Virus record (IMG/VR): IMGVR_UViG_2565956633_000002
Origin: a virus
Lineage: Duplodnaviria > Heunggongvirae > Uroviricota > Caudoviricetes
Strand: one strand, 5' to 3'
Length of the DNA: 23,481 nt
Part shown: piece by piece, positions 2,928-23,359 of the stretch
Numbering within the stretch: position 1 is the stretch's first letter
Layout of the letters: each line of letters starts with the position of its first letter
The notes under the pieces: model-generated
Told to the model about the DNA's origin: nothing
Database searches by the model: none
What the model saw: only the letters and a program-made list of their open reading frames with translations
Program-made: the position numbers and the translations under genes

Positions 2928-3149
2928 TCAGATAATGGTTTTAAGTAAAGTGTACAGGATCGGCTCTGCCTTTACCTGTTTATGGTTCTCGTCATAGAAA
3001 CGCCAGCGACCGCGCGTGCGTTCTATTTTCTCTTCACCGCGCGATAATGACAGTTGGCAACTATCACGATCAAACCCTTTTGCCCGCCAGTAACCACGGT
3101 TTTTCTCAAGCTCAAGATGAGTGGACACTTTAGCAGCTGAATATCCCAT
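2928..3149 (-). CDS. hypothetical protein, 73 aa, immediately upstream of cre
   Basis: ATG at 3149 is preceded by GAGGTG then AAAA. The stop lies 8 bp before the cre ATG. Product MGYSAAKVSTHLELEKNRGYWRAKGF... is not recognised. Confidence 0.45.
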   Translation of the reverse strand: MGYSAAKVSTHLELEKNRGYWRAKGFDRDSCQLSLSRGEEKIERTRGRWRFYDENHKQVKAEPILYTLLKTII

Positions 3150-3246
3150 TTTTCACCTCTGATTGATTGGTGGTGCTAAGTGCGCTACGCGAAATCTGGA
3201 GTACTAACACTGCCAACATTTCGCAGATTTTACGTAGCGCAACCTT

Positions 3247-3319
3247 GATCAAATGATCAAGTGATCACTATTTGACCTGATAAGGTATTGAACTGTATGG
3301 ATTTACAGGTGAATTGATC
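3247..3319. promoter_or_regulatory. cluster of four Dam (GATC) sites in the cre upstream region
   Basis: GATC at 3247, 3255, 3263 and 3316, within the palindromes TTGATCAAATGATCAA and AGTGATCACT. From memory, the P1 cre promoter region is reported to be methylation-regulated. Confidence 0.4.
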
Positions 3320-3379
3320 ATGTTCAATAACCCTTAAGGGTCTGAAGAGGAGTTTACGTCCAGCTGCGCATAAAAATCA

Positions 3380-3396
3380 AGAATTATTAGAGCAAT
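3380..3396 (-). promoter_or_regulatory. C1 operator (Op99-like)
   Basis: Minus strand reads ATTGCTCTAATAATTC. Confidence 0.65.
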
Positions 3397-3462
3397 AAAT
3401 TTTGAGAGAAAAATCCCACTCCACCAGCCAAAAACTGGATTGTTTTTCATAGTTGTTTGACA

Positions 3463-3479
3463 ATTGCTCTAATAAATTA
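3463..3479 (+). promoter_or_regulatory. C1 operator (Op99-like), upstream of coi-c1
   Basis: ATTGCTCTAATAAATTA, 16/17 to consensus. Confidence 0.7.
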
Positions 3480-3717
3480 TAGTTTTGCCGCCGTTTCGTA
3501 ATACGACTTTGGATTCACTATTTAATGTGTCTTCAGCGTTGTAGAGCGGCTCAGAAGGAAATGAGCAAACAGGGAAACCTTATACAACGGCATTACAGCT
3601 ATGCATTGCTCATCTTACACACAGCGCAATGTTGTTAGATTACCCCAGCATGGATCATGGGTGAAACAGTAGGTCAGAGCTTCAGGCTCTGTGTTGTCAA
3701 TACAGTGAGGCATAATT

Positions 3718-3927
3718 ATGGCTTTCATTCCACCAACCATCGACGACGTTAGACATTGCTCTAACGCTTTATCTGTAGACCCCGCCGAAACCGACGCTGC
3801 CCGCGCCATTGCTGAACACTACTCAAAGATATCCAATCAGGAGTACCGCATCACCCAAGACGACCTGGATGATCTCACTGACACAATCGAATATCTCATG
3901 GCCACTAACCAGCCAGACTCACAATAA
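3718..3927 (+). CDS. coi: Coi, C1 inactivator, 69 aa
   Basis: 69-codon ORF directly upstream of c1 with Shine-Dalgarno GTGAGG. The size and position are those of P1 coi. Confidence 0.8.
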   Translation: MAFIPPTIDDVRHCSNALSVDPAETDAARAIAEHYSKISNQEYRITQDDLDDLTDTIEYLMATNQPDSQ

Positions 3928-3928
3928 A

Positions 3929-3945
3929 TGCACTAATAAATCTAT
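3929..3945 (+). promoter_or_regulatory. weak C1-operator-like site between coi and c1
   Basis: TGCACTAATAAATCTAT, with the core CTAATAAAT conserved. A near-copy occurs at 23058-23074. Confidence 0.3.
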
Positions 3946-4037
3946 TATTTTCGTTGGATCCTTCTATAATGGTGGCCAACAACTCCCAGTGTAATCCGCT
4001 GTGAGTTGTTGGCCATGTCAATTCTGGAGGAGGATCA

Positions 4038-4889
4038 ATGATAAATTATGTCTACGGCGAACAACTGTACCAGGAGTTCGTCAGCTTCAGGGATCTCTTT
4101 CTAAAAAAAGCTGTTGCACGCGCCCAACACGTTGATGCCGCCAGCGACGGTCGTCCTGTTCGCCCGGTTGTCGTTCTGCCGTTCAAAGAAACGGACAGCA
4201 TTCAGGCTGAAATTGATAAATGGACTTTAATGGCGCGGGAACTGGAACAGTACCCAGACCTCAATATCCCAAAGACTATTTTATATCCAGTGCCTAACAT
4301 CCTTCGCGGTGTGCGTAAGGTTACGACTTATCAGACAGAAGCTGTGAACAGCGTCAACATGACCGCTGGCCGCATTATTCATCTGATTGATAAGGACATT
4401 CGCATCCAGAAAAGCGCGGGGATCAATGAGCACAGTGCGAAATACATAGAGAACCTGGAAGCAACAAAAGAGCTAATGAAGCAGTACCCGGAGGATGAAA
4501 AATTCCGTATGCGTGTACACGGCTTTAGCGAAACAATGCTGCGCGTCCACTACATTTCCAGTAGCCCTAACTACAATGATGGTAAATCAGTTAGTTACCA
4601 TGTGCCGCTGTGTGGTGTGTTTATCTGCGATGAAACTCTCCGTGATGGAATCATCATCAACGGTGAATTCGAGAAAGCAAAATTTAGCCTTTATGACTCT
4701 ATAGAACCGATCATCTGCGACCGCTGGCCGCAGGCAAAAATATATCGCCTGGCAGATATTGAAAATGTAAAAAAACAAATTGCCATCACTCGCGAAGAGA
4801 AAAAGGTCAAATCAGCCGCATCAGTTACGCGCAGCCGTAACACTAAGAAGGGGCAGCCAGTAAACGACAACCCCGAAAGCGCGCAATAA
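4038..4889 (+). CDS. c1: C1 repressor of lysis (immC), 283 aa
   Basis: Translation MINYVYGEQLYQEFVSFRDLFLKKAVARAQHVDAASDGRPVRPVVVLPFKETDSIQAEIDKW... matches P1 C1 in sequence and length. Strong Shine-Dalgarno GGAGGAGG. Confidence 0.95.
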   Translation: MINYVYGEQLYQEFVSFRDLFLKKAVARAQHVDAASDGRPVRPVVVLPFKETDSIQAEIDKWTLMARELEQYPDLNIPKTILYPVPNILRGVRKVTTYQTEAVNSVNMTAGRIIHLIDKDIRIQKSAGINEHSAKYIENLEATKELMKQYPEDEKFRMRVHGFSETMLRVHYISSSPNYNDGKSVSYHVPLCGVFICDETLRDGIIINGEFEKAKFSLYDSIEPIICDRWPQAKIYRLADIENVKKQIAITREEKKVKSAASVTRSRNTKKGQPVNDNPESAQ

Positions 4890-6447: not shown

Positions 6448-6570
6448 GTATCGCCTTAGACTTAAGCGGGAGGCCAATCCCGGCACCCGTTTTAATGAGG
6501 TGCCTGATAAGCATAAACCGAAAATGCCTCAAGGCGCAAGAGGTCAGGTTCAATGTAACATCGGTAGCTA
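6448..6570 (-). ncRNA. candidate c4-like antisense regulatory RNA (boundaries approximate)
   Basis: This is the transcribed region between a C1-operator promoter and the terminator. It contains AUUGGCCUCC, which is complementary to the icd ribosome-binding site GGAGGCUGCCAAU, and a GUCUAAGG copy also present at that site. The arrangement follows the P1 c4-icd-ant paradigm. Confidence 0.3.
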
Positions 6571-6577
6571 AAAAACA

Positions 6578-6594
6578 CAATTTATTAGAGCAAA
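6578..6594 (-). promoter_or_regulatory. C1 operator (Op51-like) at the head of the immI-like module
   Basis: Minus strand reads TTTGCTCTAATAAATTG, 15/17 to consensus. Confidence 0.65.
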
Positions 6595-6597
6595 TGT

Positions 6598-8082
6598 TCA
6601 TTCATTAAGCCATGCCAGAGCTTCATCAACCTGCGCTTCGTCTTCGACGCTAAGCACTTCATCCTGGGGAACATAATCCGCCAGCATAGCGAAACAATAT
6701 GTATCCCAATGGTCTGGTGAGTGCAGGTTGAGTTTTTTCTTCATATCCTCCTTACTCATCACCTTCCATTGACCTGCGGAGTTAATCCCTACAGGGATTT
6801 TCGACGCTTCCTCAATAGTTTCATTACCCTTATCCAGTCTCATACGACCAGATTTTACGGCCTCTGCGGCTTGAACGTTGGCATAAGCACGTTTATCAAA
6901 GTACAGGCTCTTATCTTCACGGCTATGCATCTTTTTACCCCAGCGTATACGCTGTACGGTAATACCATAATACTCGTACATCAGATCCGCTGTTGCTTTA
7001 CCCAGGCCATCGCCATCTATCGCTATGGTGATATTGGGGAATCGCTCAGGATTACATTCTGCGAAAATTTTGGCGGCAAGCTGCGTTTCTGTAACGTCTG
7101 TGTATTCCAGCATTCGATAGTTGATTACACGGCGTTTATTTCGCTGGCCGGACACCATCATGATATTGATAACTGACTTATCCCGTCCCGTACCACCAGC
7201 AACGTCCACACATGCAAGCCAGCCCCATCCTTTGGCAATCTTAACTTTCCGCCGCGTTGCACGTTCAACCTCATCACGTCCAAGAAGGAAGCCGTCCTGT
7301 GATTTAGGGAATAGGCCGCGCACCTTAATCATGTACATAGGGTTATCACGCCCGCCGTACTCCGCCAGCTTCATTTTGATAAATTCTGGCGTTACCAGCG
7401 GTGATTCCTCACTGTTAAGCGTGATCGCCGTATAAACGCCATCTGGGTTACCAGGACGCTTGGCCAGTTTATGGTGAGTATCGTAGAAATAGCCGCTTGG
7501 GCGTGTAGGCTGTGACAGTAATAAGATGCGGTTATCCTGTCCGGTAAGAGCACCGGTGATGATACCGAAAGCTCTATCACTGACACCGGAGGCTTCATCG
7601 ATAATATACAGAAGATGATCTGCGTGTTCACCGGCGAGAGCTTCTTCACTTCCCAGACGAAAGCCCTTCGGTACTACAGTCCATACACCTTTACCAGTAA
7701 CCTCATAGAAAGCGGTTTCTGTCAGAACAAAATAATCAGCAAGCCATGGAAAACGGCTGGTGGCAGTAGCCCAGTTTATCTTGATGTACTTGAATATACC
7801 GGTCATTACCTGCTGAATTTTGTTCGCAACGATAATGGCACGGGCACCTGGATACATGATTATGAACAACATGATCATGATAGAAGTCATGTCTGATTTC
7901 CCGGTACCGTGACCAGACGAAACAGATGTCTTGCTACCCTGTTCCTGCACAGACTCAATAATCAGATCCTGCTGCCAGGTAGGTGTTTTGCCGAACAAAA
8001 CATCAGCGGCAGCAATCCAGTCATAACGATATAGCGCCACCAGCTCGCGCCAACGTGGATCCGTTACGCAACTTCTGGCCAT
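6598..8082 (-). CDS. pacB: PacB, pacase / terminase large subunit, 494 aa
   Basis: Terminase-type ATPase with Walker A GHGTGKS and a C-terminal nuclease region. The 494-aa length and the one-base overlap with the upstream gene (TAATG) match P1 pacB. Confidence 0.9.
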
Positions 8083-20288: not shown

Positions 20289-20354
20289 ATTGCTCTAATA
20301 AAAAACGTGATGAGTGTACATCACGTTTTAAAAATATGGAATTATTAGAGCAAT
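20289..20354. promoter_or_regulatory. pair of divergently oriented C1 operators flanking a hairpin
   Basis: ATTGCTCTAATAAAAAA on the plus strand at 20289-20305. Hairpin CGTGATG-AGTGTA-CATCACG at 20306-20325, with an A-run before and a T-run after. Minus-strand ATTGCTCTAATAATTCC at 20338-20354. Confidence 0.6.
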
Positions 20355-20355
20355 A

Positions 20356-21057
20356 TTATTCTGATTCTCGCTCAAAAAATGAGCTGATAAGGGGAAGCCA
20401 ATCCTCTGACACTTCGCGAGGTCGCGGTTTGCCGTGGAAAAAGATTATTCGGCAGTCTTTTGGTAATGCCCCATTCCCCCTGGAGTAACGCGCGCTCGCA
20501 TATTTCGAACCAGGTTCCACAACATCGGCCTTGTAACTTACAAACCATCCCGGATACAGATCCTGAAATGCTGGTGTATCATCACCCATAACCTTCCGCA
20601 AAAACCCCTGCTCACCCCAGCATTCAGTAGTAACACAACGAGCAATCCAACCTTCCGGATCTTGCCAGAATGCACTCCAGATATGCGCTTTTACACTATT
20701 TGGTATCCACAGGGCACCGCTGCCACGATATTGTGGATGGTAAAAATCCCTAAGCATGGTGAAGCTGGTTGGTGGATTCTCTAGGATTGGGCGTATATCA
20801 CCGGCAATAACCGTGTCCAAATCCAGATAGAACAGATCATCGGTTATATCCGGTCGGAACAACTCGATTTTCGCCCACCAGCCACGGCACTTTTGCCACT
20901 GGTTGATCAATGGGACAACTTTGACGCCAGGTACATGTAAACGCTTCAGGTCTGTCAGGCAAATAATTTCATAGCCTTTTGGCAGTTGATTAACCAGCCA
21001 CTGCACATCGGAAGCGTTATAGTCACCACCAGAGCGAAGAACTAAAGCAATCTTCAT
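20356..21057 (-). CDS. hypothetical protein, 233 aa, with a DxD motif (possible nucleotide-sugar transferase fold)
   Basis: ATGA start/stop overlap with the upstream phosphatase gene. Contains a DLDTV motif. The family is not recognised. Confidence 0.65.
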
Positions 21058-21731
21058 GCTGCACCATCACCTTTCACTTTCATCAATGTCAGGTTTCCGC
21101 AAAATACGGCACCTGTGTCGATATAATGCTGATTCCAGAATGTCTTCGGGCTTTTCACCGGAGTGTGACCAAAGATAAAACGATCTGCGCCAGAAATTTC
21201 GCCACCAATATCATCCATCGAATCACTGATACGCTCGCGCGCCCAGACAACGTTGAAAAGCGGCACCTCCTTACCGAATTGATATTCATTATCCGGATAG
21301 TCGGCATGGGCTATAACGATAGTTTCTTGCCCGGTGTTCAACTCAATGATATAGGGCAGTCGTCTTACCAACTCCACCAGCGCCCTGGCTAATATTTCCT
21401 GATCAGCGTCCAGCATGAAGAACCATTGACCGCCATTCATTAGCCAGTTATTCACGTTGCCATCTGGACTTAACGCATCAATCATCAGCCGCTCATGGTT
21501 CCCCATCACTGCCCTGAACCAGGGCATCTGCAATAGTTCCAGACATTCGACATTTTCAGTACCGCGATCGATAAGGTCGCCGACCGATATCAGTAAATCC
21601 TGCGCCGGGTCAAAATCCACACGATGGAGTTCGGACATCAGTCTGGTGTAGCAACCATGCAGATCACCAACAACCCAGACATTCCTGTATTTGGTACCGT
21701 CGATACGGTGATAAATTGTGGGTGCCATCAT
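21054..21731 (-). CDS. Ser/Thr protein phosphatase, lambda-PPase family (P1 ppp-like), about 225 aa
   Basis: All three metallophosphoesterase signatures are present (VVGDLHG, GDLIDRG, GNHE), and the product is strongly similar throughout to lambda PPase as I remember it ([19 protein letters not shown]...[11 protein letters not shown]). I chose the ATG at 21731 because it forms an ATGA overlap with the upstream gene. Confidence 0.85.
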
Positions 21732-22354
21732 GTATTCTTCAGCCATTCTTTAAGAGTCATCTGCGGAATACCTCCCATTTTCCCGCATGAAACAACGTCA
21801 ATCTGTTCACGCGCAGACTGGAATAACAAAGGCAGGTGACTTAGATTTTTTGGCGTGCCGCCGGAGTGAACGCGTGGTTCTTGTGTAGCGTCAACGCCCA
21901 CCAGGGCGACATGTTTGAATCCGATATGGAAAGCCAGGTTCAGAGCACCATATGCACTATTGCCGCTGGCAATTTCATTCTCATCTTCGCAAAGGCCGAA
22001 ATGTGCGGACCAGCGCCACGCCCACCACTCGGGAGAATTCGTATTTTTTGGCTCCGTGCCGCGCTCAGCCACACGACGGAAGCACAGAACGCCATCTCTG
22101 ACTTCACGTTCTTTAACATCGGGTAGTGCCATGCAATAACAAACACCACGGCGACGGCGGCCACGACCAACGCGCCGCATATTGTCTGGCGATGGATCAA
22201 GGGTGAAAAAATAAGAAGCGCGGTTAAGCCAGTCGATGGCCCCATTGACCGCTATAATCGGCACTCCGCGCGGCGCAACAAAGTTTGCGGCGCTTGGGCC
22301 ACTGCCGACGATAATAACGCGATCACTGCCTCTAAATTTATTCTTGGGAAACAT
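21728..22354 (-). CDS. hypothetical protein, 208 aa, paralogue of the next gene (shared GSGPS ... IIAVN motifs)
   Basis: [31 protein letters not shown] here versus TVFCVGSGPSLTREDCAAIEKTGCSIIAVNNSW in the adjacent ORF. Shine-Dalgarno AGGAG lies 12 nt upstream of the ATG. Confidence 0.6.
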
Positions 22355-22914
22355 TGAATTGCACTGCTCCTACTTGCATTCAAAATATGTAAATCTGCGT
22401 GTTTTTTGCGGGTATCCAGGAACTGCTGTTGCCATTTTGAAATAGACACCTGCGTTGGATTCCGTAGGGCTTGAGGGTGCGCGCCATGCCAATGAAGGCC
22501 GTTTTGCAGAGAACAGTCATAGCCGACTAATACCACTACTTCAGCCCCTGATTCAGCAGCCAGACTGATAGCCTGCGCGCCGCTATTTACCCCTTCCGCC
22601 GGTCCACAATATCGCCTGTACTCCAACGAAAATGATTTCGCCGCCGCCAGGTTGGCTGTCACTTTGCGGAATCTCCCTCCCGGTATGGTGGATCCGTATT
22701 GCTTCCACCATGACAAATCACCGGCGTATAAGGCATAAATGTCATCGAACATCTGCCAGGAATTGTTAACCGCGATGATTGAACAGCCAGTTTTTTCTAT
22801 AGCAGCACAGTCCTCACGAGTGAGTGACGGACCGCTACCGACACAAAAAACAGTCCTAGTCGCCCTGGGTGGTATGTTCATTCTCAGCTGCAAATTCAGC
22901 CTCCAGGCGAGCAT
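22252..22914 (-). CDS. hypothetical protein, up to 220 aa, paralogue of the previous gene; start uncertain (ATG at 22914 or 22881)
   Basis: Same motif set as the downstream paralogue. Its 3' end overlaps the downstream paralogue by 103 bp in a different frame. Confidence 0.55.
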   Translation of the reverse strand: MLAWRLNLQLRMNIPPRATRTVFCVGSGPSLTREDCAAIEKTGCSIIAVNNSWQMFDDIYALYAGDLSWWKQYGSTIPGGRFRKVTANLAAAKSFSLEYRRYCGPAEGVNSGAQAISLAAESGAEVVVLVGYDCSLQNGLHWHGAHPQALRNPTQVSISKWQQQFLDTRKKHADLHILNASRSSAIQCFPRINLEAVIALLSSAVAQAPQTLLRRAECRL

Positions 22915-23057
22915 TCATTTCAGCGATTACCGGGTCCACTACAGCATCTGCTTCCTGTTCATTACGCGGCATGATCGATGCCAGCGATTCATAATTAGCC
23001 TTGAATGACACGATTATTCTCCCGATGTTAATGTGCGCTATATCAAAGAGCACATAT

Positions 23058-23074
23058 GCACTAATTAATTTATT
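23058..23074 (+). promoter_or_regulatory. weak C1-operator-like site
   Basis: TGCACTAATTAATTTAT. The surrounding 25 bp nearly duplicate 3928-3953. Confidence 0.3.
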
Positions 23075-23077
23075 ATT

Positions 23078-23359
23078 TTAAGCAGCATACAACCACTTGT
23101 CGCCGTTCAATACATGCTCAATAGCCTCACCCTTTTTAAGGCTTATGTATTCCAGGATGGCGGTTATCGCTTGTTCTGCACCATACGCAAGAACGACGTA
23201 GTAACCTTCCTCTCTAAGCCTGCGCATCCAGGCGATCTGCTCTTTCGTCGGGGCTTTACCATTTGGTTCTTTAAGCTCAATTCGCATGCCGTGATAAATA
23301 CCGCATGCTTTATCGAGACTCATGTCCGGATAACCTTTTTTCTGCCCTTCAGCCTTCAT
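23078..23359 (-). CDS. VRR-NUC-like small nuclease-domain protein, 93 aa
   Basis: Only one start codon (ATG 23359) is available after the in-frame stop at 23474-23476. The product carries GYPDM ... IELKEPNGK ... Q..W motifs reminiscent of a PD-(D/E)xK VRR-NUC domain. Confidence 0.45.
   Translation of the reverse strand: MKAEGQKKGYPDMSLDKACGIYHGMRIELKEPNGKAPTKEQIAWMRRLREEGYYVVLAYGAEQAITAILEYISLKKGEAIEHVLNGDKWLYAA

Follow-up and report, generated by a model that had tools for sequence, protein, structure and literature searches.

The closest described relative of the locus analysed here is the pmgN-pmgO-pmgP-ppp-pmgQ (hdmA-D) operon of phages P1 and P7, as annotated by Lobocka et al. 2004 (AF234172 / NC_005856 / AF503408). 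In that operon, five genes are joined through ATGA junctions and a 103-bp pmgO/pmgP overlap, and are flanked by C1 operators. The dispensability of the pmg genes is documented (PMC9024508, PMC10695390), and in-frame deletions of pmgN, pmgO, pmgP, pmgQ and ppp left both plaquing and antirestriction unchanged (PMC9024508).

The window, a stretch of 23,481 nucleotides from a member of the Caudoviricetes (IMG/VR record IMGVR_UViG_2565956633_000002), aligns to phage P1 without gaps at 98% nucleotide identity. Nineteen phage records match over 80% or more of the query (100% in each of the matches listed), at 97.9-98.5% identity and with the same set of coding sequences. All of the operon features described for P1 and P7 recur in the window, which differs from them by point substitutions only (about 2%) and represents another P1-like isolate. 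The gene block, which lies entirely on the minus strand, is the already annotated pmg operon of a P1-like phage-plasmid. P1 features were mapped onto the window via the gap-free alignment to AF234172 (locus coordinate = window - 16199), statements by the P1 authors on the pmg genes were taken from the GenBank notes, and the resulting features are collected in Table 1.

Table 1. Features of the pmg operon and its flanks, in coordinates of the window.
Feature	Position	Strand	Basis or remark
Oppp (former Op83), C1 repressor operator upstream of operon	23055..23071	+	P1 annotation AF234172; window sequence TATGCACTAATTAATTT
sigma-70 promoter PpmgN region	23075..23110	-	P1 annotates PpmgN at 23084-23110; consensus scan GCGACA-17-TAAAAT at 23103-23075
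pmgN, 51 aa, first operon gene	22856..23011	-	P1 annotation; PHROG 2350, E 3e-37
pmgO, 220 aa, Maf/MptE/sialyltransferase-like	22252..22914	-	alternative start M12 at 22881
AGGAG Shine-Dalgarno-like element, 12 nt before pmgP ATG	22367..22371	-	within DNA for PmgO conserved SR motif
pmgO/pmgP dual-coding overlap, 103 nt	22252..22354	-	pmgO codons 187-220 + stop; pmgP codons 1-35
pmgP, 208 aa, PmgO paralogue	21728..22354	-	ORF; PF01973 partial match; PHROG 2111, E 4e-132; 328 homologues
ppp, 230 aa, lambda NinI-type PPP-family Ser/Thr phosphatase	21054..21746	-	start 21746 (as P1) or ATGA start 21731
pmgQ, 233 aa, probable GT8-like GT-A glycosyltransferase	20356..21057	-	PHROG 1962 'glycosyltransferase', E 4e-127
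operon end: hairpin + T-run 20300-20329 between inverted C1 operators OpmgRa (20338-20354) and OpmgRb (20289-20305)	20289..20354	-	sequence + P1 annotation

A previous sequence-only reading of this stretch had described four closely packed genes linked by overlapping start and stop codons, and all four open reading frames, together with their packing into a single operon, are borne out. The ATGA at 21054-21057 combines the ppp stop with the pmgQ start. That at 21728-21731 combines the pmgP stop with an in-frame ATG of ppp, which is also the position at which the Klebsiella ppp homologue starts, whereas the P1 annotation places the ppp start 15 nt further upstream, at 21746. What that reading lacked was the annotated status of the block in P1 and the fifth gene at the head of the operon, pmgN, which has a GTG start codon preceded by GGGAGA some 6-7 nt upstream, and which also overlaps pmgO (59 nt, or 26 nt with the pmgO start at 22881). 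Going by the P1 annotation, the operon would be transcribed from the C1-repressed promoter, and PpmgR of the next operon is located in the operon-end region. The hairpin following pmgQ is visible by eye, and was not reported by the terminator scan.

The overlap between pmgO and pmgP, which are read in different frames, was confirmed to the nucleotide. It had been proposed to be either a real overlap, a recent frameshift or a programmed frameshift, with the proviso that homologues sharing the overlap and retaining both proteins intact would mark it as ordinary. Such homologues exist. The pmgP ATG falls on the same Cys codon of the conserved "CF" motif of PmgO in 11 lineages whose proteins are as little as about 40% identical, and the overlaps at this junction measure 40, 49, 67, 70, 94, 100 or 103 nt. 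Other relatives have an overlap of 4-13 nt (in L120, 13 or 43 nt according to the choice of start), and in one distant phage (P0051, locus L003) pmgO and pmgP are fused in frame. The pmgP ATG is formed by the last base of one PmgO codon and the TG of the conserved Cys codon, and the last conserved helix of PmgO is therefore read over the poorly conserved N-terminus of PmgP.

Within the overlap, the first 45-50 nt code for PmgO residues that are conserved family-wide, beyond which the PmgO frame of P1 continues for 18 extra codons through GSGPS-coding DNA before reaching a stop. With regard to where the conserved C-terminus ends, a check that had been suggested beforehand, the PmgO family profile stops at residue 202, and residues 203-220 form a lineage-specific tail; tails past residue 202 vary in length among homologues, and the block of residues 211-220 has a pLDDT of about 59. 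The extra length of the overlap in P1 is due to a drifting stop codon, which adds this poorly modelled tail to PmgO. In the 80 near-identical P1 copies recovered by a viral-contig scan, from which 69 P1-like haplotypes were compared, polymorphism density is 0.019 in the overlap versus 0.106 in the flanks, or roughly fivefold lower (binomial p = 8e-4). Furthermore, no indel was found in the overlap among P1, P7 and 69 further equal-length haplotypes (71 P1-like haplotypes aligned at full length), and the relatives from Klebsiella (L007) and Pantoea (L090) retain the AGGAG ahead of pmgP as AGGAGG. As judged by sequence conservation, the overlap is shown to be ordinary, old, dual-coding and evolutionarily conserved, and neither an error nor a recent frameshift.

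If the overlap had arisen through a recent frameshift mutation or a sequencing error, pmgO and pmgP would originally have been one gene or two abutting genes. The in-frame fusion in the one distant phage could be read in this way, as could an A6 tract upstream of the overlap (22402-22407) that is frameshifted in some natural variants (P0002). However, the recurrence of the junction with both full-length reading frames in 11 lineages, the lack of indels across the P1-like haplotypes, and the family-wide conservation of the PmgO residues at the start of the overlap leave this explanation practically no chance, and on these comparisons it is already effectively refuted. A programmed -1 ribosomal frameshift, which would yield a PmgO-PmgP fusion besides the two separate proteins, is likewise extremely improbable. 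It is true that pmgP is read in the -1 frame with respect to pmgO, that a canonical X_XXY_YYZ heptamer, A_AAT_TTA, occurs in the pmgO frame at 22333-22339, and that the natural fusion in L003 implies that a fused product could be functional. Yet this heptamer, the sole slippery one, is specific to P1, being absent in the Klebsiella, Pantoea and Citrobacter relatives with the overlap, and by our own estimate one such heptamer would be expected by chance in about 1/8 of overlaps of equal length. The 96 nt of downstream RNA fold no better than shuffled sequences (z -1.38); neither a heptamer conserved in relatives nor a downstream stimulatory structure was thus found, and the candidate site was rejected. 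In addition, a shift at the heptamer would remove the conserved terminal helix of PmgO, which the natural fusion retains, and pmgP possesses its own ATG and upstream AGGAG. Of the three proposals, only that of a real overlap stands.

The two upstream genes had also been suggested to be duplicates on the basis of shared GSGPS and IIAVN motifs. Both proteins do contain VGSGPS...IIAVN, and the motifs of PmgP comprise GSGPS, IIAVNG, GNSA...VGVD and NLSHLP. Pairwise BLASTP aligns PmgO and PmgP along the N-terminal motif stretch only (E 0.003), and it is the profile methods that show their paralogy: hhalign matches the two families with a probability of 99.6% (E 1.2e-24), and in a joint MAFFT alignment the central NSG...G(Y/V)D motif lines up, as do the strand and helix at the C-terminus, so that the similarity reflects real homology and not chance. 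The duplication is nonetheless ancient and not recent, as hardly any pairwise identity remains beyond the motifs and the proteins belong to separate, widespread families.

PmgO and PmgP are ancient paralogues with a Maf/MptE/sialyltransferase-like fold, and the Rossmann-like arrangement of the MptE/Maf fold was recognised; within the pair, the structure model covers PmgO alone. Against PF01973 (MptE-like/Maf), PmgO and PmgP score 23.4 and 20.9 bits, respectively, in partial C-terminal matches below the gathering threshold of 34.6, while the fused homologue P0051 scores 44.6 bits and several homologues have a precomputed PF01973 match. Searches of PDB sequences gave nothing meaningful, whether run with PmgO itself or with the PmgO or PmgP profile. 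The MptE-like fold is common to the Maf flagellin glycosyltransferases and the GT42/GT29 sialyltransferases and, at the level of sequence profiles, also to the Kdo transferase WaaZ, which itself matches PF01973 over residues 1-195 and has the same motifs as PmgO and PmgP. The relationship to WaaZ (the E. coli K-12 KdoIII transferase, CAZy GT73) holds at the superfamily level only: the likeness is marginal, with 11.8 bits against a TIGR04437 cut-off of 200 (E 0.11), hhalign of the PmgP profile with the single WaaZ sequence gives a probability of 10%, which is too weak to use, and the WaaZ family PF27901 gives only a 'faint' match, on P0051.

The description of the fourth gene as a DxD protein and putative transferase holds up well. 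Across 41 PmgQ homologues, D79-L-D81 is invariant, and H208, G209, P211 and P213 of an H208-G-x-P-x-P motif are at least 90% conserved. The AF2 model of PmgQ (pLDDT 94.7) has a GT8-like GT-A fold, its Foldseek matches being Gat1, glycogenin, GlyE and LgtC (E 2.5e-8 to 1e-6), and a profile search of PDB sequences returned the GT8 structure 6mw5 (E 2.9e-8). The alignment with the GT8 core enzyme WaaJ is weak (hhalign E 2e-4, probability 45%), and a Pfam scan of PmgQ found no family at E <= 1, Glyco_transf_8 (PF01501) included. The GT-A fold, the DxD motif and the C-terminal His motif that characterise GT8, and that serve it in metal and nucleotide binding, are all present, and from model and motifs PmgQ is probably a GT8-like, DxD, retaining hexosyltransferase.

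The assignment of the remaining gene as a lambda-type Ser/Thr phosphatase is confirmed by PF00149 (59.2 bits; cut-off 21.5) and the NinI-like PHROG 246 (E 2e-113). Like lambda NinI, Ppp has all of the PPP-family motifs (GDLHG, GDLIDRG and GNHE in the translation), and the P1 annotation gives 64% identity to the lambda phosphatase; it remains under the NCBIfam equivalog cut-offs for E. coli PphA and PphB (279 and 239 bits versus 326 and 332). Whereas the lambda phosphatase is encoded in the nin region, Ppp lies inside a glycosyltransferase operon. None of the non-P1 relatives carries the gene between P and Q, and some P1-like contigs lack it there as well. By this comparison of gene order Ppp stands outside the conserved module, as an insertion between P and Q that is limited to part of the P1 clade.

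Many unrelated phages share the order O-P-Q, or P-Q, and in some of them a fourth gene, nucleotide-sugar-transferase-like, accompanies it; these diverse loci were found by a viral-contig scan led by a distant PmgP sequence. The module lies directly after or near a major capsid, portal or MuF gene in loci L109/L115, L110/L111, L112, L113, L118, L120, L123, L125 and L128, with the lysis cassette on one side and terminase on the other in L108 and L114, and in the typical moron position in lambdoid prophages. In P1 itself the operon is outside the head module, and many chromosomal prophage homologues of PmgO have no P and Q nearby.

Together, the pmg genes most likely make up a non-essential cassette for sugar transfer. 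We assign a probability of roughly 0.7 to the explanation as a whole, namely a P1-like operon with an old dual-coding overlap, in which O, P and Q constitute a cytoplasmic glycosylation cassette with a head or virion protein as the likeliest acceptor. PmgO, PmgP and PmgQ would act together, with PmgO and PmgP possibly as a heterodimer, and needed in fixed proportion because they are fused in one phage (L003). As donors, the enzymes would draw on nucleotide sugars of the host, with PmgO and PmgP using a CMP-ulosonic acid such as CMP-Kdo and PmgQ a UDP-hexose. CMP-Kdo is made plausible as a donor by the reported ability of Maf enzymes to use it in E. coli (bioRxiv 10.1101/2020.06.03.131540; PMC11339370). 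A head or virion protein is favoured as acceptor because relatives repeatedly carry the cassette among head-morphogenesis genes. Several observations were counted against the cassette: the deletions have no plaque phenotype, PmgO and PmgP fall below the PF01973 threshold, the P1 operon is outside the head module, and PmgO homologues often occur in chromosomal prophages without P and Q. So was the C1-controlled promoter, which implies expression from early after derepression. The published proteome of the P1 virion includes no report of glycosylation, and a literature search returned no biochemical data on sugar transfer by PmgO, PmgP or PmgQ and no glycosylated P1 protein. In a more far-reaching proposal, which we regard as possible but doubtful, PmgP-PmgQ, along with PmgO and in some cases a fourth transferase, would constitute a virion-glycosylation cassette that is widespread among phages of Gram-negative bacteria and decorates head proteins, including those of P1, with a glycan of host-derived ulosonic acid (Kdo-type) and hexose.

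The cassette might instead remodel the host envelope rather than the virion, with PmgO and PmgP extending the LPS core, in the manner of WaaZ, by one more Kdo-type sugar, and PmgQ resembling the GT8 LPS-core hexosyltransferases. The LPS core, which serves P1 as receptor, would thereby be altered, bringing superinfection exclusion or a smaller loss of progeny on cell debris. In keeping with this, WaaZ shares a superfamily and motifs with the paralogues, PmgQ aligns weakly with WaaJ and structurally with LgtC, overexpressed WaaZ is reported to truncate the outer core (Frirdich 2003), C1 control of the P1 operon allows early expression, and lambdoid prophages carry the module in a moron position. 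However, the module is inside the head gene cluster in many phages, so that expression would come too late to remodel an existing outer membrane, the likeness to WaaZ is far below family thresholds, and the deletions show no plaque phenotype; we consider envelope remodelling rather unlikely. It is quite unlikely that PmgO and PmgP are not glycosyltransferases at all and act, like MptE or thiamine pyrophosphokinase, as (pyro)phosphotransferases with a small-molecule substrate, perhaps in functional connection with the phosphatases Ppp and Pap. The sequence-only reading had favoured a host-modification or anti-defence cassette, for which no direct evidence was found. A cassette that modifies or dephosphorylates a component of host immunity would fit accessory, non-essential genes under a C1-controlled promoter in P1 and a eukaryotic-like phosphatase. 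Yet antirestriction is unchanged in the single deletions (PMC9024508), the phosphatase is outside the conserved module, and Pfam, PHROG and NCBIfam scans gave no likeness to known anti-defence proteins, making this role very unlikely.

The gene block and its long overlap belong to a phage genome that ranks among the best known, no new explanation is called for, and the frameshift question is closed. The remaining value is functional: a fusable O/P paralogue pair, a constant P-Q partnership and recurrent placement among head genes together offer a concrete hypothesis on the role of pmgO, pmgP and pmgQ, in a model phage with existing deletion mutants. Should P1 virions or host LPS prove to be glycosylated by the cassette, there would be consequences for phage immunogenicity, for receptor masking and for how hundreds of prophage genes, now named 'norphogenetic protein' (sic, a database misspelling), are annotated. 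If the virion-glycosylation reading is true, a Proteobacterial counterpart of mycobacteriophage virion glycosylation would have been hidden for 20 years under 'putative morphogenetic function'.

Comparison with known enzymes places the putative glycosylation cassette near several systems. Unlike the Maf flagellin nonulosonic-acid glycosyltransferases (PF01973 / DUF115, e.g. PDB 5MU5), PmgO and PmgP are single domains of about 200 aa without the Maf flanking domains, score sub-threshold in Pfam and have no link to flagellin; the phage loci examined contain no nonulosonate biosynthesis genes. Comparison with the GT42 sialyltransferases Cst-I/II gave no PDB sequence match, and E. coli K-12 is not known to make CMP-sialic acid. 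PmgQ shares the GT-A fold and invariant DxD of the GT8 retaining enzymes (glycogenin, the Gat1 Skp1 alpha-galactosyltransferase, GlyE, LgtC and WaaJ), and its C-terminal H-G-x-P-x-P-W resembles HxxGxxKPW, but it is shorter (233 aa), lacks a PF01501 match and reaches a TM-score of only ~0.57. In mycobacteriophages, glycosyltransferase genes beside the capsid gene reportedly modify virion proteins. The virion glycosylation cassettes of mycobacteriophages (Freeman et al. 2023, Cell Host Microbe; cited in PMC12582341) differ from the pmg genes in their enzyme families, in that the pmg hosts are Gram-negative, and in that the P1 operon is outside the head module; what they have in common is that the glycosyltransferases are phage-encoded and that many of the PmgP-PmgQ relatives likewise lie among head genes.

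Along its entire length, the region shares 97.9-98.5% identity with P1, P7, RCS47, SJ46 and other P1-like phage-plasmids (megablast, phage records). The P1 records AF234172 and NC_005856 name its four ORFs pmgO, pmgP, ppp and pmgQ, for which the P7 names are hdmA-D, and place before them a small gene, pmgN, that the sequence-only reading had not listed. The P1 annotation also contains the 103-bp pmgO/pmgP overlap, a C1 repressor operator, Oppp (formerly Op83), with the promoter PpmgN upstream of the operon, and two inverted C1 operators 3' of pmgQ. Given these matching genes, overlap and operators, the block is, as judged from its sequence, a locus that had already been annotated in a classical phage. 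ORF calls and inspection of the sequence confirm the earlier description of the four ORFs, the 103-nt overlap and both ATGA junctions, the ppp stop being joined to the pmgQ start at 21054-21057, and the pmgP stop to an in-frame ATG within ppp at 21728-21731.

Genes of the pmgN-pmgQ operon, by window position
Gene	Position	Strand	Product or remark
pmgN	22856-23011	minus	small gene preceding pmgO (P1 annotation)
pmgO	22252-22914	minus	220-aa ORF
pmgP	21728-22354	minus	208-aa ORF
ppp	21054-21746	minus	230-aa ORF
pmgQ	20356-21057	minus	233-aa ORF

At the head of the operon, pmgN and pmgO overlap out of frame (22856-22914) by 59 nt, or by 26 nt if PmgO begins at M12 (22881). The annotated pmgO start appears uncertain, since residues 1-20 are modelled at a pLDDT of 50-57 and homologues have shorter N-termini. 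Beyond pmgQ (20289-20354), a 7-bp hairpin with a T-run lies on the minus strand at 20300-20329. It is flanked on both sides by the inverted C1 operators ATTGCTCTAATAA and TTATTAGAGCAAT (Op86a/b in the P1 annotation), so that the terminator is interleaved with the repressor sites that belong to the following operon, pmgR-pmgS; this hairpin is absent from the terminator-scan output.

The pmgO and pmgP ORFs, whose frames differ, have exactly 103 nt in common (22252-22354), for which a real overlap, a recent frameshift or a programmed frameshift had been proposed. The junction was reconstructed in 15 lineages. In 11 of these (P1, Klebsiella, Salmonella-type and Pantoea P1-like plasmids, several contigs of ~90-100 kb, a Citrobacter rodentium lambdoid prophage and two others), the pmgP ATG consists of the third base of the codon preceding PmgO's conserved Cys and the TG of the Cys codon itself; the base supplied is always A, and the PmgO motif is xCF or xCY. 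This arrangement persists down to ~40% PmgO identity, with overlaps of 40, 49, 67, 70, 94, 100 and 103 nt, and the position of the PmgO stop is its sole moving part. The remaining lineages overlap by 4-13 nt (in the contig L120, 13 or 43 nt by start codon), and in a 62-kb phage contig, L003, PmgO and PmgP form a single in-frame fusion of 376 aa (P0051).

The conserved PmgO domain ends near residue 202 in the homologue alignment, and the PHROG 4603 profile covers residues 25-202. Past this point the tails vary in length and sequence among homologues, and residues 211-220 form a block of pLDDT ~59 in the AlphaFold model. The extra length of the P1 overlap arises because the PmgO frame stays open through the DNA coding for PmgP's GSGPS, which it reads as 'SAVAQAPQ...'. 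From 74 full-length P1-like copies, 71 distinct haplotypes were obtained, of which 69 match the window sequence in length. In this set of 69, polymorphism affects 2 of the 103 overlap positions (0.019), versus a density of 0.106 in the flanking single-coding parts (binomial p = 8e-4), and the overlap is free of indels among the P1-like haplotypes compared.

A junction so widely shared and free of indels excludes a recent frameshift. Programmed frameshifting from pmgO into pmgP would agree with the -1 position of the pmgP frame and with a canonical heptamer, A_AAT_TTA, that the pmgO frame contains at 22333-22339. Relatives having the same overlap, however, lack this heptamer, the RNA 3' of it is unremarkable in structure (z -1.38), and a slip there would deprive PmgO of the conserved last helix that the natural fusion still has. 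Moreover, pmgP is provided with a separate ATG and, 12 nt before it, with AGGAG, which two relatives have as AGGAGG. Programmed frameshifting is therefore without support. Homologues with the same overlap and both proteins intact, which the sequence-only reading had named as the mark of an ordinary overlap, were found, and the overlap is, on these comparative grounds, real, old and ordinary.

Natural decay of pmgO was also observed. In the variant P0002 (174 aa, 48 member sequences), a frameshift in the pmgO A6 tract (22402-22407) leads to the terminus ...KKTRRFTYFECK* at a TAG (22370-22372) that overlaps the first base of the pmgP AGGAG, 15 nt upstream of the pmgP ATG; PmgO is shortened and pmgP left intact, which suggests repeated loss or phase variation of pmgO in P1-like plasmids. 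In L117, a 101-kb P1-like viral contig, a further case is seen at 6460-7007, where PmgO is broken into ORFs of 118 and 115 aa beside intact PmgP and PmgQ.

Both proteins carry GSGPS and IIAVN motifs, from which a duplication had been proposed. While pairwise BLASTP recovers this stretch only (E 0.003), the family profiles match with a probability of 99.6% (E 1.2e-24), and in the MAFFT alignment the NSG...G(Y/V)D block coincides, as do the strand and helix at the C-terminus. By these comparisons PmgO and PmgP are true, though anciently diverged, paralogues, the PmgP family being larger (328 matches versus 51) and also better conserved. The only Foldseek match below 1e-3 for the PmgO model is Maf, a flagellin glycosyltransferase. 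PmgQ, modelled at a pLDDT of 94.7, matches the GT8 retaining glycosyltransferases Gat1, glycogenin, GlyE and LgtC (Foldseek E 2.5e-8 to 1e-6) and 6mw5 (sequence profile, E 2.9e-8), and its D79-L-D81 is invariant, in keeping with the DxD transferase first suggested. Likewise, Ppp is a standard phosphatase of the lambda NinI type (PF00149, 59 bits; PHROG 246, E 2e-113; motifs GDLHG, GDLIDRG and GNHE), in agreement with the lambda-type phosphatase first suggested. As its start, the 21731 of the sequence-only reading is no less likely than the 21746 annotated in P1, because a Klebsiella homologue begins at the ATGA position, from which lambda NinI presumably also aligns. Several P1-like contigs of 90-100 kb (L124, L126, L127 and L117) have the O-P-Q genes but no ppp, and their O and P genes overlap by 40 nt. 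By this distribution, ppp seems to have been inserted between its two neighbours in only part of the clade, which makes the phosphatase a passenger outside the core of the cassette.

HMM searches across diverse loci recover a recurring cassette, ordered O-P-Q or P-Q without O, joined in some phages by a fourth member, a weakly PF03407-like nucleotide-sugar transferase. In at least six capsid lineages it directly follows the HK97-type major capsid gene or its connector (L109/L115, L110/L111, L112, L120, L123, L125, L128); elsewhere it follows the portal gene (L113) or the portal and MuF genes (L118), or lies between the lysis cassette and terminase (L108, L114). In L118 the portal protein (2939-4714; PF06381) ends in an Acb1 anti-CBASS domain (PF23474, E 1e-29) and is thus a portal-anti-defence fusion. 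Many chromosomal prophage PmgO homologues lack P and Q. Between the lysis and terminase genes of a Hafnia alvei prophage (L004, 6001-8007), the genes after a PmgO-like one encode a 280-aa protein whose sole Pfam match, of GT-B type, is non-significant (PF13692, E 0.22) and a Methyltransf_23 protein, which replace PmgP and PmgQ; alternative partner sets therefore exist for PmgO homologues.

In the literature searched, no paper assigning a function to pmgO, pmgP, pmgQ or ppp was found; in RefSeq, two of the products are already called 'alpha-2,3-sialyltransferase' and 'glycosyltransferase'. In-frame deletions of pmgN, pmgO, pmgP, pmgQ and ppp are among the 24 of 29 P1 knock-outs without plaquing defect or antirestriction change, which leaves the proposed anti-defence role unsupported, and only PmgC and PmgG, of the Pmg proteins, were detected in virions (PMC9024508). 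By CRISPRi, pmgO, pmgP, ppp and pmgQ are non-essential; pmgN is scored essential, yet its deletion is viable and the downstream genes are non-essential, a contradiction flagged by the authors (PMC10695390). The paralogues, phosphatase, DxD transferase and real overlap of the sequence-only reading stand, and its frameshift and anti-defence proposals are unsupported. The locus and its overlap are already known; any further interest lies solely in the function of the conserved, head-associated O-P-Q cassette.

These analyses establish the operon, the O/P paralogy and dual-coding junction, the protein folds, the natural fusion and the partnership of P with Q. We propose that O, P and Q would constitute a cytoplasmic glycosylation cassette, in which O and P may be required together in fixed proportion, served by the tight overlap and elsewhere by fusion. 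Among the annotated loci, no gene of nucleotide-sugar biosynthesis was flagged beside the cassette, so its donors would have to be host-derived, O and P taking a CMP-ulosonic acid and Q a UDP-hexose. CMP-Kdo is the only CMP-ulosonic acid donor known in E. coli K-12. In E. coli, Maf enzymes can reportedly accept CMP-Kdo (bioRxiv 10.1101/2020.06.03.131540, PMC11339370). The acceptor would most likely be a virion or head protein, because the cassette lies repeatedly inside head gene clusters; the analogy is with mycobacteriophage virion glycosylation (Freeman 2023, cited in PMC12582341).

On a smaller rival reading, O and P would be pyrophosphokinases of the MptE type; the main rival to virion glycosylation is a WaaZ-like remodelling of the LPS core. 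The LPS core is the P1 receptor. E. coli WaaZ, the KdoIII transferase of GT73 (K-12 waaZ, L107 5346-6197), matches PF01973, the MptE-like/Maf family, over residues 1-195 (E 7e-7), which places GT73 in the Maf/sialyltransferase-like fold class; WaaZ is not known to have a solved structure. The WaaZ sequence 'LSGPTS...DIIAVNGS...SGLD' resembles the PmgP motifs, although direct similarity between the two proteins is marginal, and the C-terminal H-G-x-P-x-P-W of PmgQ aligns with the HxxGxxKPW of WaaJ.
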